Shown: piece after piece, positions 42,164-47,843 of the stretch | How positions within the stretch are numbered: the first letter of the stretch is position 1 | Layout of the letters: each line of letters starts with the position of its first letter | Assembly (NCBI GenBank): GCA_965248355.1 | Contig: OZ252098.1 | Span: 3,488,001-3,552,000, forward strand | Direction of reading: 5' to 3' | DNA length: 64,000 nt | Source of the DNA: Candidatus Latescibacterota bacterium | GTDB taxonomy: Bacteria; Latescibacterota; UBA2968; UBA8231 | Made by a program: the position numbers and the translations under genes | Notes under the pieces: generated by a model | What the model was told of the DNA's origin: nothing | Databases searched by the model: none | The model's input: only the letters and a program-made list of their open reading frames with translations

Positions 42164-42736
42164 ATGAGAAGGAGCCGCCACAAGACCTTCGAGGTGTACG
42201 CCGTCCCAGGGCGGCTGTTGGCCCTGGCCATCCTCGGTCTGGGGCTCCTCCTCCCGGCGGAGGCGCCCGCGGCGTCGAAGGCCCAGTTCACCCTGCCGGC
42301 CATCGACGGCGAGCAGTTCTCCCTGCGGGAAGCGCTGAAGGAGGGGCCGGTGGTCCTCGACTTCTGGGCCACGTGGTGCAAGCCCTGCATCAAGGGGCTG
42401 CCCAAGCTGCAGGAGATCGCCCAGGAGTACGGCGAGCGCGGAGTGGGGGTGTACACCGTGAACGTCGACGGACCCCGCAATCAGCCCAAGGTGAGGCCCT
42501 TCCTGAAGCGCCACCGGCTGGAGCTGCCGGTCCTGCTCGACCACTCGAGGCAGGTGATGAAGCAGTTCCAGATACCCGCGGTTCCGGCGACCATGATCAT
42601 CTCCACCGAGGGCGAGGTGGTGTACAAGCACTTCGGGTACAAGCCGGGAGACGAGATCCGCCTGCGCGCCAGGCTGAAGGAGTTGCTGCAAGAGGCTGAA
42701 ACCGACTCCACGAAAGGGGGAGCCGATGAGGGTTAG
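42164..42736 (+). CDS. Exported TlpA-family thiol:disulfide oxidoreductase
   Basis: Signal peptide, DFWATWCKPC and cis-Pro AVP. Confidence 0.9.
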   Translation: MRRSRHKTFEVYAVPGRLLALAILGLGLLLPAEAPAASKAQFTLPAIDGEQFSLREALKEGPVVLDFWATWCKPCIKGLPKLQEIAQEYGERGVGVYTVNVDGPRNQPKVRPFLKRHRLELPVLLDHSRQVMKQFQIPAVPATMIISTEGEVVYKHFGYKPGDEIRLRARLKELLQEAETDSTKGGADEG

Positions 42737-43616
42737 AGGTATTCTCCGGAAGGGGCGGGTCGCCTGCGCGGCCATCGCCCTCACCGCTTCACACATGGGC
42801 GGAGCGAGCGAGGCCGAGGCCCAGGCGACGGCCGGCGACCCGGCCCCCGCCTTCGAGCTCGAGACCGTGGACGGACAGCTCGTGTCGCTTGGTGACTTTC
42901 TCGGCGAGAAGGTCGTCTACATCAACTTCATCGGGAACACCTGACCGTTCTGCATCGCGGAGGCCGCGAGTTCCGAGGCAATATGGCAGAACTACGGGAG
43001 CGATGGCTTCACCGCCCTCGGCATCGATCTGTGGGACGCGAGGGCCTCCAACGTCAAGTCCATCTGGGTCGACGACGGCCTGGCGTCCTACCCGATGCTG
43101 GTCAACGGCTCGGGGGTGGCCCGGGACTACGGCGTGGTCCAGGACTACTACTTCGTCATCGATCACGAGGGGATCGTCCGTTACCGGTCGCCCGACGCAA
43201 GGCTTGGGAACCGCTTCAATGACGGGGAGATCCGCGATGCCATCGACGATGCCCTGGCCGATCTCGCCGCCGCCCTGGAGGTCGTCGAAGTGGAGGAGGA
43301 GCCGGAGGTGATCACGGCGGTTTCGTCCGCCCCCCAGGTGCCCGACGGGTTCGAGCTGGGCGCCTATCCGAATCCCTTCAACGCGGAAACGACCCTCTCC
43401 TTCACGGTGAGCACGGCGGGCCCGCTGGTCCTGACCCTGTCCGATCTCCAGGGGCGCATCCTGCGCGACTGGTCCGGACACTACGGGACCGGGAGCCACT
43501 CCCTGACCTGGGACGGACGCGGCGAGAGCGGTGAACCCGTCGCCTCCGGGGTCTACGTCGCCACCGCGCGCCAGGGGGCCGCGGCCATCACCCGAAAGGT
43601 CACCCTGCTGAAGTAG
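42726..43616 (+). CDS. Putative selenoprotein: TlpA/redoxin domain with UPFC motif plus FlgD-Ig C-terminal domain (296 aa)
   Basis: ORFs 42726..42944 and 43095..43616 are in frame and separated only by TGA 42942-42944, in context INFIGNT-U-PFC; C-terminal AYPNPFN...WDGR...VASGVY. Confidence 0.85.
42955..42969 (+). promoter_or_regulatory. Candidate bacterial SECIS hairpin
   Basis: TCGCGG-AGG-CCGCGA, G-containing loop 16 nt after the UGA. Confidence 0.65.
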
Positions 43617-43634: not shown

Positions 43635-45185
43635 CTACAGCACCTTGCTGATCAGGCGCAACTCGAGGCCCTCGAAGCCCAACACCTCGTAGCAGCTGCC
43701 CCCGGTGCAGGCCAGCCCCGTCCTCCGCCGGCCCGCAAAGGCGTCCAGCGTGTGGGCCTCGCGGAACCTCCAGCTGGCGCCGAGAGCCCCCCAGTACGTC
43801 GCCCCCGACTCCGAGGCCCCGGCCTCCAGGGGGTCGTTGGACCTCTGCAGCTGCAGCGACCACGTCCACGCCGGATAGCGGCTGACCTCCACGATGGCCA
43901 GCAGGTTCTCGTGGGGGAACTCACTCCGGCCGAAGCGCCGGTCCACGTCCTGCAACTGCAGGTCGGCGCTGACGGCGTGGCGCCCGCCGGCGGACCACTC
44001 CCAGCGCGTGCCGGCGGTCAGGCGCCGCTCGTTCTCGAGGATGCGGTTGCGCGTATAGTCGAGGAACAGCTGTCCGTGGAGGACCTCGCCCACCGGGGAA
44101 TCCAATTGCAGGAAGTACTCCCGCAGCGACTTCTCCTCGCCGGGGCGCGAACCCCGGCGGGTGGCCAGGTTCCAGGCGGCGATCAGCCCGACCTGGCGGG
44201 GCAGGGCCCAGGTGAGCTCGGCCTGGACCCCGGTCTCGTCGTCGGCCAGCAGGGCGTGGGTCTCCCGGTTGAGCAGGAAGGCCTCGTGCTCCCGGATCAG
44301 GGTGGGCGGGTTGTTGATGCTCGCAAAGGCGAAGTCGTGGTAGTCCTTCCGTTCCAGGCTCAGCCCCCAGTCCCCGCCCGTCAGGGTGGCGGCCAGGTAG
44401 AGGGCCCGCGGGCGCTTGCTGTCCAGGGAGAACCAGCGGCCCGGGGCGGGATCGAGCTGGGCGTACTCGCCGTAGAGATCGCCGTACCAGCCACCCAGTC
44501 CGAGCCCTTCCAGGAGCGACCCGAAACGGAACTCCCCATGGGTGGTGGCGGCCAGCTCCTCGCGCCCGTCGAAGGAGAACTCCATCAGCGCCGCCCCGAT
44601 CTCGATGTCGCGGCTCAGGCGGGCGCCGACGGCCCCGCCGGAAACGCGGCCCCGGCGCCGTTCCAGACCCTTCAGCCCGGGGGCCAGCTCGCTGTTCACG
44701 GGGGTGCCGCGCAGCCACAGCACGTCCACCTTCCCCCGCCGGGCGCGCACCTCCACGCCATCAAGGTCGCGCACGATCTGGTAGCGGCGGCGGGCGACGC
44801 GGTCCTCGGTGACGACGCCCGGAAGCTCGAAGGCGTGCAGGAGGAGTCCGCGGCCCACCAGGGTGTAGAAGTGTCCGGCCGTCGCCTCGAGGCCGCCGTG
44901 CCGGTAGGAGAGGGATCGCTGCGCGAGGTGAGCGTAGTCCCGGCCGTCTCCGCTGGAGCGGAAGGCCTCGCTTCGGGCGCTGGCCAGGAATCCCGAGGAC
45001 TCGAAACCGAGGTTCACCTGCTGGTACACGGCCCGCAGATCGGCCGGCTCCGCGTCGGGAAGGTTGCCGAGCTGGTATTCGTGGTGGGCCGTGAGCCGCA
45101 CCTGGCCGTGGAGGGGGCCGGCCGCCAGCAGGGCGGCCGCCAACAGGGCGAGGAGCCCAGGGCTGGCGCGACAAGGAAGGGTCAT
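43635..45185 (-). CDS. DUF6029-like outer-membrane protein
   Basis: Signal peptide, GHFYTLVGRGLLL, NNPPTLIREH and C-terminal GLACTGGSCYEVLGFEG. Confidence 0.72.
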   Translation of the reverse strand: MTLPCRASPGLLALLAAALLAAGPLHGQVRLTAHHEYQLGNLPDAEPADLRAVYQQVNLGFESSGFLASARSEAFRSSGDGRDYAHLAQRSLSYRHGGLEATAGHFYTLVGRGLLLHAFELPGVVTEDRVARRRYQIVRDLDGVEVRARRGKVDVLWLRGTPVNSELAPGLKGLERRRGRVSGGAVGARLSRDIEIGAALMEFSFDGREELAATTHGEFRFGSLLEGLGLGGWYGDLYGEYAQLDPAPGRWFSLDSKRPRALYLAATLTGGDWGLSLERKDYHDFAFASINNPPTLIREHEAFLLNRETHALLADDETGVQAELTWALPRQVGLIAAWNLATRRGSRPGEEKSLREYFLQLDSPVGEVLHGQLFLDYTRNRILENERRLTAGTRWEWSAGGRHAVSADLQLQDVDRRFGRSEFPHENLLAIVEVSRYPAWTWSLQLQRSNDPLEAGASESGATYWGALGASWRFREAHTLDAFAGRRRTGLACTGGSCYEVLGFEGLELRLISKVL

Positions 45186-45267: not shown

Positions 45268-46974
45268 TCAGGTCCGCGTCCCTTCCATGAGAATCCGCGC
45301 CACCTCCGGCCTGGTGAACTCCATGGGCGGGACCTGTCCCTTGGCCAGCATGTCGCGCACCTGTGTGCCGCTCAGATTCACGCGTTCCTCCGCGCCGTGC
45401 GGGCAGGTCTTCATGGAGGCCATGCCCTCGCAGCGCTTGCAGAAGAAGGAATGATCGAAGAACAGCGGGGTGATGCCCAGGTCGGCCGGGGGCAGGCTCC
45501 GCAGCAGGTCCTGCGCCTCATAGGTTCCGTAGTAGGACCCGACACCGGCGTGATCCCGTCCGACGATGAAGTGCGTGCAGCCGTAGTTCTTGCGGACGAG
45601 GGCGTGGAACACGGCCTCGCGCGGTCCCGCGTAGCGCATCGCCGCAGGCAGGACCGACAGATGCACACGGTCGGACGGGTAGTAGCCCTCCAGGAGGGCC
45701 CCATAGCAGCGCATCCGGATGTCGGCGGGGATGTCGTCCGGCTTGGTCTCTCCCACAAGGGGGTGCAACAGCAGCCCGTCGACGATCTCCAGGGCCGCCT
45801 TCTGGATGTACTCATGGGCGCGGTGGACGGGATTGCGGGTCTGAAACCCGACGATCGTCCGCCAGCCTCGCTCGGCGAAAGCGGCGCGCGTCTCGGCCGG
45901 GTCCTGCCGGTGGGACAGCAGAGCCGCCTCGAGGTCCTCGCGCTCGATGGCGGTGACCGCTCCGCCGATCAGCGCGTCATGCTGCCGGTAGACGGAGGCC
46001 ACGCCGGGGTGCGCTTCCTCCTGGGTGCCGAAGACGCTCTGCGCCTCGACCCTCTTGTCGTACGGATAGACCTCGTCAACCGTGATGACGCCGACGAGGC
46101 GGCCGGCGGGGTCGTGCAGGGCGGCTTCGTCGCCCCTTTCGAGTCCCGAGGCCGCTTCCCAGGGCGCGGACAAGGTGATCGGCAGGCTCCACAAGGTGCC
46201 GTTCGCGAGCCGCATCTCGCGCACCGTGCGCTCATAGTCGCCCCGGCTCATGAAGCCGGCCAGCGGGCTCATCGCCCCGACGGCGATGAGGTCGAGGTCA
46301 GCGGACTCGCGGGGAGAAAGCCCGAGGCGGGGCAGGGCCGAGGCCCGGGCGCGAATCTCCTGCGCCTCCTCCGGCGAGGCCAGTCGGTGGATGAGAGCGC
46401 CCCCGTGGGGCGCGATGGCCGTCATGGTGGCCGTGCCCTGTGGCGCGAATCCCCTCTCCTTCAGCGCGGACAGGACCTTGCCGAGGCTCTCCTCGATGGT
46501 CTCCTCCTCCGTGTTGACCAGGACCTCAGGGCTTGGCGGCGCCTCATACGGGTCCGAGACACCGGTGAAATTGGGAATCTCGCCCTTGAGCGCCTTCTCA
46601 TACAGGCCCTTCACGTCGCGCCGCACCAGCTCATCGAGCGAGGCGTGGACATGAACCTCGATGAAGCGGCCGATCTCCCGCCGCACCTCGTCGCGCACTT
46701 CGCGGTACGGCGAGATGGCCGAGACGATGCTGACCACGCCGTTGCGCGTGAGGAGGTTGCTGACGAATCCGATGCGCCGGATGTTGGTGTCGCGATCCTC
46801 CTTGCTGAAGCCGAGTCCCTTGCTGAGGTTCGTGCGGACCACGTCGCCGTCGAGCAGCTCGCAGTTGATACCCCGCTCCCCGAGGACCGCGAGCAACCGC
46901 TCCGCGATAGTGCTCTTGCCCGCGCCCGAAAGGCCGGTAAACCAGACCGTCACTCCCTGCGGATCTGTCGTCAC
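45268..46974 (-). CDS. sat: Fused adenylyl-sulfate kinase (CysC, N-terminal) and sulfate adenylyltransferase (Sat, C-terminal)
   Basis: [12 protein letters not shown]...[11 protein letters not shown] followed without a stop by PHGG...[11 protein letters not shown]...GRDHAG. Confidence 0.92.
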
Positions 46975-47004
46975 CTTGTTTCCTCCCTTGTCCGGGTTCG
47001 TGTT

Positions 47005-47772
47005 CTATGGTGTGGCGATGCCGGCGCCGTTTCCGGGCGGGATCGCAGTCCTCGAGATGTGGATGCCGCACTCCACCTTGTCCCCGAAATCGGACCAGCG
47101 GCCGGCTCTGCGGTCCTCGCCGGGCCGGACGGCGCGGGTGCAGTGGGTGCAGCCGATGCTGGGATACCCGCGGTCGTGCAGGTCGTTGTAGGGCACGTCG
47201 TTCTCGCGAATGCAATCCCAGATGTCCTCCTCCGTCCAAGTCGCCAGGGGGTTGATCTTGACGAGGTTGAACTTGATGTCCCATGCGACGATGGCGACAT
47301 CCTTGCGCCTGGTGCCCTGATCACGGCGCAAGCCGGCCATCCAGGCGTGCTGCCCGGCGAGGGCCTCCTCGCTGGGCCCGACCTTGCGGATCTCGCAGCA
47401 GAGATCGGGGTCGACCTTCCAGAGTTCCGGGCCGTGCCGTGCCGCCTGTCGCTCGACGGAAACGTCCGCCTTGAAGGCCATGGGACGGATTCCGTAGCGG
47501 CGCGCGGCCCGGTCCTTGAGGGCGTGTGTCTCCGGGAAGAGAAAGCCCGTATCGACGTAGAAGACGGAGACGGCGGGATTGATCTCCATGGCCATGTCGA
47601 GCAGGACCATGCCGGAGACACCGCCAAAGCTGCAGGCGAGCGTGATGTCCGGGAAGAAGGTCTCCAGGGCCCAGCGCACGATCTCCCGCGGGTGGGCGTC
47701 CTCCAGCTCGGCTCTGACCTGTCCAAGCCTCTCCTCGGTCCATTCCGTCCTCAGCGCTCCAATGTCCGCCAT
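47005..47772 (-). CDS. cysH: APS/PAPS reductase, Fe-S type
   Basis: SFG, DTG.LF.ET, CCEIRK, GYPSIGCTHCT, RAGRW and ECGIH; ATG 47772 with RBS. Confidence 0.92.
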   Translation of the reverse strand: MADIGALRTEWTEERLGQVRAELEDAHPREIVRWALETFFPDITLACSFGGVSGMVLLDMAMEINPAVSVFYVDTGFLFPETHALKDRAARRYGIRPMAFKADVSVERQAARHGPELWKVDPDLCCEIRKVGPSEEALAGQHAWMAGLRRDQGTRRKDVAIVAWDIKFNLVKINPLATWTEEDIWDCIRENDVPYNDLHDRGYPSIGCTHCTRAVRPGEDRRAGRWSDFGDKVECGIHISRTAIPPGNGAGIATP

Positions 47773-47803
47773 GTCTTCCGCTCTCCCTCCGTATCTGGCT
47801 GGC

Positions 47804-47843
47804 AAGAAAAAACCCGCCCCCCTTGGCTGTCGGGGGGCGGGTT
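47804..47843 (-). terminator. Intrinsic terminator (attenuator) upstream of cysH
   Basis: AACCCGCCCCCC-GACAGCCAA-GGGGGGCGGGTT followed by TTTTCTT. Confidence 0.85.

Follow-up and report, generated by a model that had tools for sequence, protein, structure and literature searches.

A redoxin gene in the window (the whole stretch of 64,000 nucleotides that was analysed, from a Candidatus Latescibacterota bacterium) almost certainly encodes selenocysteine (Sec) at an in-frame TGA. Sequence comparisons further indicate that this gene belongs to a conserved module, consisting of a TlpA-like protein, a predicted DUF6029 barrel and a putatively exported redoxin. Redoxin selenoproteins with UxxC have been described before as a class. 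The likely function of the module would be new, and the selenoprotein itself is hidden in protein databases. The features of the locus are listed in Table 1.

Table 1. Features of the Sec redoxin gene and its neighbours (positions within the window)
Feature	Position	Strand	Remarks
TlpA-like Cys redoxin (WATWCKPC, cis-Pro kept), predicted periplasmic	42164..42736	+	11-nt overlap with start of Sec gene
Sec redoxin gene, 296 aa, TGA read as Sec	42726..43616	+	signal peptide, UxxC thioredoxin-fold domain, acidic linker, T9SS type A-like C-terminal domain
Predicted signal peptide, aa 1-32, cleavage between A-E-A and Q33	42726..42821	+	by eye and hydropathy; similar N-termini in homologues
AhpC-TSA/Redoxin domain, aa 37-153, U73-P-F-C76, Asp140 at cis-proline position	42834..43184	+	
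Predicted Sec codon, in-frame TGA	42942..42944	+	opposite first Cys of orthologue CxxC
SECIS-like hairpin, 6-bp stem, A-G-G loop, 10 nt 3' of TGA	42955..42969	+	
T9SS type A-like sorting domain	43365..43613	+	exceeds cut-off of TIGR04183; FlgD_ig; model with seven beta-strands
7-bp inverted repeat between convergent stop codons	43619..43636	.	read from sequence
DUF6029 protein, predicted large outer-membrane beta-barrel	43635..45185	-	converges on Sec gene; C-x4-C hairpin near C-terminus

A single frame runs from the ATG at 42726 to the TAG at 43616, and its sole internal stop is the TGA of codon 73, within INFIGNT-U-PFC. Standard ORF calling returned 72 aa and a 173-aa fragment starting at M124, and missed 50 codons. 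The initial annotation had joined the two fragments into one frame through this single TGA, which can be read directly at 42942-42944, and had taken the 50 skipped codons for redoxin sequence. Upon read-through, AhpC-TSA indeed matched aa 37-153 (E 3e-16), together with Redoxin, and FlgD_ig matched aa 227-281 (Pfam). The proposed FlgD-Ig/T9SS-like C-terminal domain was also recovered by TIGR04183, with 29.5 bits over aa 214-292 (cut-off 23). An AlphaFold2 model of residues 31-296, built with Sec as Cys, had a mean pLDDT of 84.6 and consisted of two confident domains with a low-confidence acidic linker between them. Its C-terminal domain had seven strands; the T9SS type A C-terminal domain is defined with a seven-strand Ig-like fold in PMC10202324. 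Judged by eye and hydropathy only, the N-terminus has a basic n-region, a modest h-region (9-residue hydropathy maximum 2.4) and the A-E-A cleavage motif before Q. The signal peptide is clearer in homologues than in the redoxin of the window.

All four selABCD genes, which the initial annotation had named as a check on its Sec reading, were found in the genome, i.e. selA, selB, selD and, as selC, a tRNA-Sec with a UCA anticodon; selD itself has an in-frame TGA. Of 25 alignments spanning the site (23 loci), 24 had TGA, one of them being the window itself, and one had TGC. The same TGA occurred in 23 of the 24 non-self homologues, at 32-80% identity. A profile of the domain matched 66 times in 61 genomes, and 64 of these matches had an in-frame TGA; in the phylum, where 140 genomes were searched, it matched 118 times in 83 genomes, and 114 of these had an in-frame TGA. 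These tallies count a TGA within the match rather than at a position aligned row by row. Among copies selected by motif, the site was TGA in 76 and TGC or TGT in 67. CxxC was present at the motif in 143 of the 150 best full-length library matches, many of the 143 being generic multi-domain TlpA proteins. A large CxxC group comprises proteins of ~260 aa with G-x-x-C-x-x-C and a T9SS tag, and its named members belong to Calditrichota and Marinimicrobia. Hence, homologues carry TGA or Cys at the site rather than Trp or another non-Cys residue, and relatives in other phyla carry Cys at the codon-73 position, in agreement with the earlier alignment of the TGA with the first Cys of CxxC.

The distribution of selA followed that of the TGA, with selA present in 2/2 Sec-form versus 0/3 Cys-form genomes tested. 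In the own family, the five genomes without a selA match were also without a redoxin-profile match. G050, a fragmented genome, had a TGA-bearing redoxin match and no selA match, and one relative copy in G017 has an additional TAG. The TGA codon was unchanged in contigs of 4/4 runs; these runs came from four studies, and the DNA analysed here may itself stem from one of them. This recurrence in other runs and genomes speaks against a read error. Translation of the TGA as Trp or by other recoding was ruled out by Cys in the orthologues, by the single Trp tRNA (CCA) and by the tRNA-Sec (UCA) of the genome. In a word-indexed search of protein databases, 37/37 homologues began after codon 73, at residue 80 or later. 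Because all of these are post-TGA pieces, databases contain the Sec form as fragments, as had been expected of standard annotation.

A tree of 138 redoxin domains required 4-5 Sec/Cys changes, and in it a clade composed mostly of Cys forms lay amid the Sec forms; it came from a quick search with a midpoint root and 55 of the 133 inner branches open, which does not fix the direction of Sec/Cys change. At one locus (L033; G038:C178), Cys and Sec paralogues lie in tandem, and the Cys copy retains a similar hairpin sequence past the codon, which suggests a recent Sec/Cys switch. Other TGA-bearing redoxins occur outside the window. At G000:C1:3214024-3214404 (-), a second AhpC-TSA protein has an in-frame TGA in H-W-U-P-H-C and a signal-like N-terminus, and the halves of a TGA-bearing redoxin at G000:C1:1891934-1893545 (-) lie ~1.2 kb apart.

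The hairpin that the initial annotation had seen 10 nt past the UGA stood as to its position and its SECIS signal across the family, but not as to its significance in the window sequence alone. There, it did not fold above chance (z = -0.5 for a 69-nt stretch of 69% GC sequence), and 17% of synonymous recodings folded equally well. Across 20 sequences, 85.8% of the stem was paired, both-side changes occurred in 2/6 pairs and the covariation was reached in 0/500 shuffles, a result inflated by kinship among the sequences. The hairpin beat 90% of synonymous recodings in 14/21 copies, compared with 13/147 control windows. The same threshold was passed by 48/76 Sec copies and 10/67 Cys copies, which are not independent of one another, and the trend was the same per GC band. 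By these comparisons, the putative SECIS hairpin is significant at the family level only. That the TGA is a true stop, the mark of a pseudogene or a sequencing error is scarcely credible: the unremarkable hairpin of the window and the G017 and G050 copies would suit it, but the recurrence of the TGA among non-self homologues and phylum matches, Cys in orthologues, the selA distribution, the enrichment of the hairpin in Sec forms and the constancy of the codon across runs all count against it.

The closest solved folds to the redoxin in Foldseek were of the ResA/TlpA/CcmG type (E 4e-10, TM 0.82-0.85 over the target), with AhpE next to ResA among the closest, and the matches also included BCP peroxiredoxins. 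The position equivalent to cis-proline is Pro in ResA and in the neighbouring TlpA and Asp140 in the redoxin; neither Pro nor Arg occurred there in any of the 127 scored copies (of 138). According to PMC2757866, proline at this position is usual in thioredoxins and in proteins for cytochrome maturation, and Arg in peroxiredoxins; absence of cis-proline is atypical for protein-disulfide exchange, and cis-proline may prevent metal binding. Since it has neither residue, the redoxin belongs neither to TlpA/ResA nor to the peroxiredoxins. Membership of TlpA/ResA/DsbE was rejected by the missing cis-proline and by the NCBIfam scores (ResA 37 bits versus 170, DsbE 26 versus 123). Compared with ResA/TlpA, the redoxin has G-x-x-U/C-x-x-C instead of W-A-T-W-C, and where they are anchored in the membrane it bears a sorting tag. 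Membership of the AhpE/BCP peroxiredoxins was likewise rejected, as the motif F-I-G-N-T-U-P-F-C lacks PxxxTxxC/U and there is no Arg at the cis-Pro position. Omp28/HBP35-like proteins were discarded for want of a PF11551 match at E 0.01, and deiodinase-like/WAxxUGC proteins by NF038285 (20.3 versus 250 bits), NF041054 (21.4 versus 300 bits) and the lack of a deiodinase Pfam match. None of the NCBIfam selenoredoxin models reached its cut-off on the redoxin.

A 2026 inventory describes 119 prokaryotic selenoprotein families (PMC13188914, Table 1). Two of its UxxC entries, 'Prx-like thiol:disulfide oxidoreductase' (PF00578) and 'Redoxin family protein' (PF08534), have the same Pfam domains as the redoxin and share with it UxxC, a UGA with a downstream hairpin, and Cys orthologues. 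No mention of T9SS sorting domains or of a DUF6029 cassette occurs in the entries of Table 1; the comparison was made by description rather than by sequence, and overlap with a broad entry is possible. A T9SS-tagged surface thioredoxin is known in HBP35 of Porphyromonas gingivalis (PMC2907840, PMC10202324). HBP35 resembles the redoxin in its thioredoxin-like motif and C-terminal domain, and is reported to have a surface form and thioredoxin activity (PMC2907840), but it differs in having Cys instead of Sec, in its larger size and in binding hemin. HBP35 was not recognised among the best 60 of 62 solved-structure matches to the redoxin family profile.

The redoxin is probably exported beyond the outer membrane. 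The genome encodes SprA, PorV and two PorU-family proteins, all scoring over cut-off, and contains 137 similar C-terminal domains, 99 of them ending near a stop. The earlier claim of a secreted or surface-displayed Sec oxidoreductase thus gained the sorting tag, the SprA, PorV and PorU matches and the Sec evidence, while export itself we still infer. GldM had no match in the genome, with a search that was silent in control genomes too, and this may be listed against both the export and the relay discussed below. With two PorU-family genes and no GldM match, the type IX system is possibly reduced or divergent. The PorU-family genes lie at G000:C1:4989956-4994009 and 1932358-1935477, one of them directly before a PorV match.

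The tags of the redoxin vary. The tails of 72 Sec copies comprised 46 T9SS-like C-terminal domains, 10 repeat tails that we take to be dockerin-like, 5 SWGxK tails, 6 others, which look dockerin-like by eye, and 5 that were cut off. In L033, L036, L037, L079 and L080 dockerin-like D-F-D-G-x-G repeats replace the T9SS-like domain on the redoxin, and in L034 and L035 a short S-W-G-x-x-K tail does so. Both the repeats and the short tail may be unrecognised sorting signals. In L028 (G024:C25), a Sec redoxin is fused to a long middle domain ahead of the sorting tag; presumably this domain resembles the serine beta-lactamase fold.

The DUF6029 neighbour was modelled with a pLDDT of 90.2 and a pTM of 0.84, and by our own count from the secondary-structure list of the model it has ~24 membrane strands. 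Its C466 and C471 lie in a short two-strand hairpin between the last two strands, on the long-loop side of the model. By topological reading of the turn-length pattern, this hairpin would be an outside loop. Both cysteines were conserved to 90% or more among 100 sequences and invariant in 48/48, and C-x4-C was present in 6/6 barrels sampled by Pfam family. A Foldseek search with the barrel gave no real homologue, the best matches being ushers and porins at ~10% identity and an rmsd of 9-15, and a structure atlas returned only DUF6029-type clusters. The names of homologues of the barrel indicate Candidatus Latescibacterota. A possible role of DUF6029 in polysaccharide export has been proposed from its likeness to Wzi barrels (PMC9603273). 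The inverted repeat between the convergent stop codons is a possible terminator. A gene resembling cysH and another resembling a fused APS kinase/sulfate adenylyltransferase (45268-47805, -) share the strand of the barrel gene and immediately precede it. These sulfate-activation genes were rejected as parts of the module, as cysH and cysC-sat matched 0/20 relative loci; so were mscS and hrpA, which matched 3/20 relative loci, all of the same genus.

The barrel and TlpA flanked the Sec gene in 13/20 relative loci, in varying orders and orientations. In the remaining 7/20 the Sec gene had no barrel nearby; these copies belong to four genomes, and in two of the four the barrel and TlpA lie elsewhere. 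Among 36 genomes of the own family, the barrel was present in 19 and the redoxin in 20, and the two sets agreed except for G013: the redoxin occurred in 19/19 barrel genomes and was absent from 16/17 genomes without a barrel match. In named-genome loci found with the Cys-form alignment, TlpA followed by the barrel lay directly upstream of the redoxin in 31/35, and 4/35 were without barrel. The 31 loci came from Bacteroidales, Cytophagales, Rhodothermales and unclassified Bacteroidota, a range biased to Bacteroidota by the use of a tighter 20-sequence subset, the loose 64-sequence alignment being too variable for locus search. Of 211 metagenome loci with the barrel, the 80 best showed TlpA in 68, the redoxin in 66 (39 Sec, 25 Cys, 2 both) and both partners in 57, and among those of at least 9 kb both partners were present in 37/37. 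Of the two patterns used in the metagenome search, one included the Cys pair of the barrel, so that these loci are no test of its conservation. The counts overstate independence, because the loci are related and were picked by similarity.

The Cys version of the redoxin is present in the type strain Reichenbachiella agariperforans (L108), and 60 genomes drawn independently from its phylum yielded six further barrels. In the six loci sampled by Pfam family, TlpA was adjacent to the barrel in four, and in four an Omp28-family (PF11551) CxxC protein occupied the redoxin's place beside it, with a T9SS tag (three of the four) or a lipoprotein-like N-terminus. The Omp28-family proteins and the redoxin belong to different thioredoxin-like families. 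Two of the six loci had a tagged neighbour without CxxC, and two had no adjacent TlpA. The barrel loci L081-L083, L087 and L088 had TlpA and no redoxin alongside. In G059, two near-identical TlpA-barrel copies (L084, L085) each lie near transposase-like ORFs.

It is quite possible, though short of probable, that electrons flow from DsbD through TlpA and the barrel hairpin to the selenoredoxin, and on to a disulfide or oxidant outside the cell. We propose this relay because of the linkage of the three genes, the conserved Cys or Sec pair that TlpA, barrel and redoxin each carry, and the swap of CxxC families beside the same barrel. Sec would be inserted at codon 73, after which the signal peptide would carry the redoxin across the inner membrane and the C-terminal tag would take it across the outer one, through a type IX-like system. 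Outside, U73 would attack an oxidised substrate and C76 would resolve, and electrons from DsbD would recharge the redoxin via TlpA and the barrel hairpin. A full-length DsbD, with C-x3-C, is encoded elsewhere in the genome. The barrel would be the outer-membrane equivalent of DsbD's inner-membrane part, and its short Cys hairpin, serving thioredoxin-fold partners, resembles in our view the DsbD N-domain. The logic of a thiol relay is the same as in DsbD, but the proposed relay crosses the outer instead of the inner membrane. More tentatively, the trio might constitute an outer-membrane thiol-disulfide wire, a counterpart of DsbD, in Latescibacterota, Bacteroidota, Calditrichota and relatives, with a type IX-secreted selenoenzyme as its terminal in Sec lineages. 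Not only the outer partner but also the sorting tag is exchangeable, as Sec forms bear a C-terminal domain, dockerin-like repeats or SWGxK.

Several observations weigh against the relay. In barrel proteins, a Cys pair in an outer loop often has a structural role. With the hairpin predicted outside, it is hard to see how TlpA could get to it from the periplasm, and the lack of cis-proline in every scored redoxin copy would count against protein-disulfide exchange. Nor is the linkage absolute, given the loci above in which one of the partners is missing.

Rather unlikely, but the first of the alternatives, is capture and import: the exported selenoredoxin would bind or reduce heme, a metal ion or a small molecule that reacts with thiols; this the barrel would import, and TlpA would keep the periplasmic side reduced. 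Metal handling is a serious rival because the redoxin lacks the cis-proline that may prevent metal binding. Conversely, no metal-uptake, TonB or metal-regulator neighbour recurred in the loci listed (read without systematic count), no plug domain was evident in the barrel model, and a barrel Cys pair with two redoxins suits electron transfer at least equally well.

Somewhat less likely still, the barrel would specifically serve its tagged neighbour, as an exit pore, a shuttle or an anchor at the surface, with TlpA only maintaining the thiols of cargo and barrel during biogenesis. Its best structural matches were pilus ushers, which pass folded domains, albeit weak ones (TM ~0.5, ~10% identity), and a tagged or lipoprotein-like neighbour flanked the barrel in 6/6 Pfam-sampled loci, with or without CxxC. 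A private pore is not obviously needed, however, in a genome with SprA, PorV, PorU and ~99 similarly tagged proteins, and the frequent CxxC/UxxC identity of the partner would be left unaccounted for.

It is improbable that the redoxin acts as a periplasmic or lone fast Sec scavenger of peroxides or disulfides, with a generic Ig module at its C-terminus and uncoupled neighbours. The AhpE and BCP peroxiredoxins among the fold matches, the GldM result with its silent controls, and extra redoxin copies away from the barrel in several relatives would all agree with such a scavenger, but the sequence has neither PxxxTxxC/U nor Arg at the cis-Pro position, three different C-terminal tags interchange, and the linkage outlasts rearrangement and spans phyla.

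Among the papers searched, mostly outside subscription journals, none dealt with the TlpA-DUF6029-redoxin trio or with a type IX-secreted selenoprotein, although supplementary selenoprotein lists could include family members. The selenoprotein by itself would be a modest addition to a long list. The family occurs in 83 of the 140 genomes searched in the phylum, is predicted type IX cargo and is hidden in protein databases. To our knowledge, how Gram-negative cells keep their surface thiol enzymes reduced is an open question. The trio provides a named, testable route by which they might do so, and because the Cys version occurs in Reichenbachiella agariperforans, it is testable without the uncultured host. 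It also gives DUF6029 a hypothesis beyond the polysaccharide export considered in PMC9603273. If the relay is true, selenium chemistry would take place at the surface of cells of the Sec-using lineages, with electrons supplied from inside, by means of an enzyme that gene callers split.
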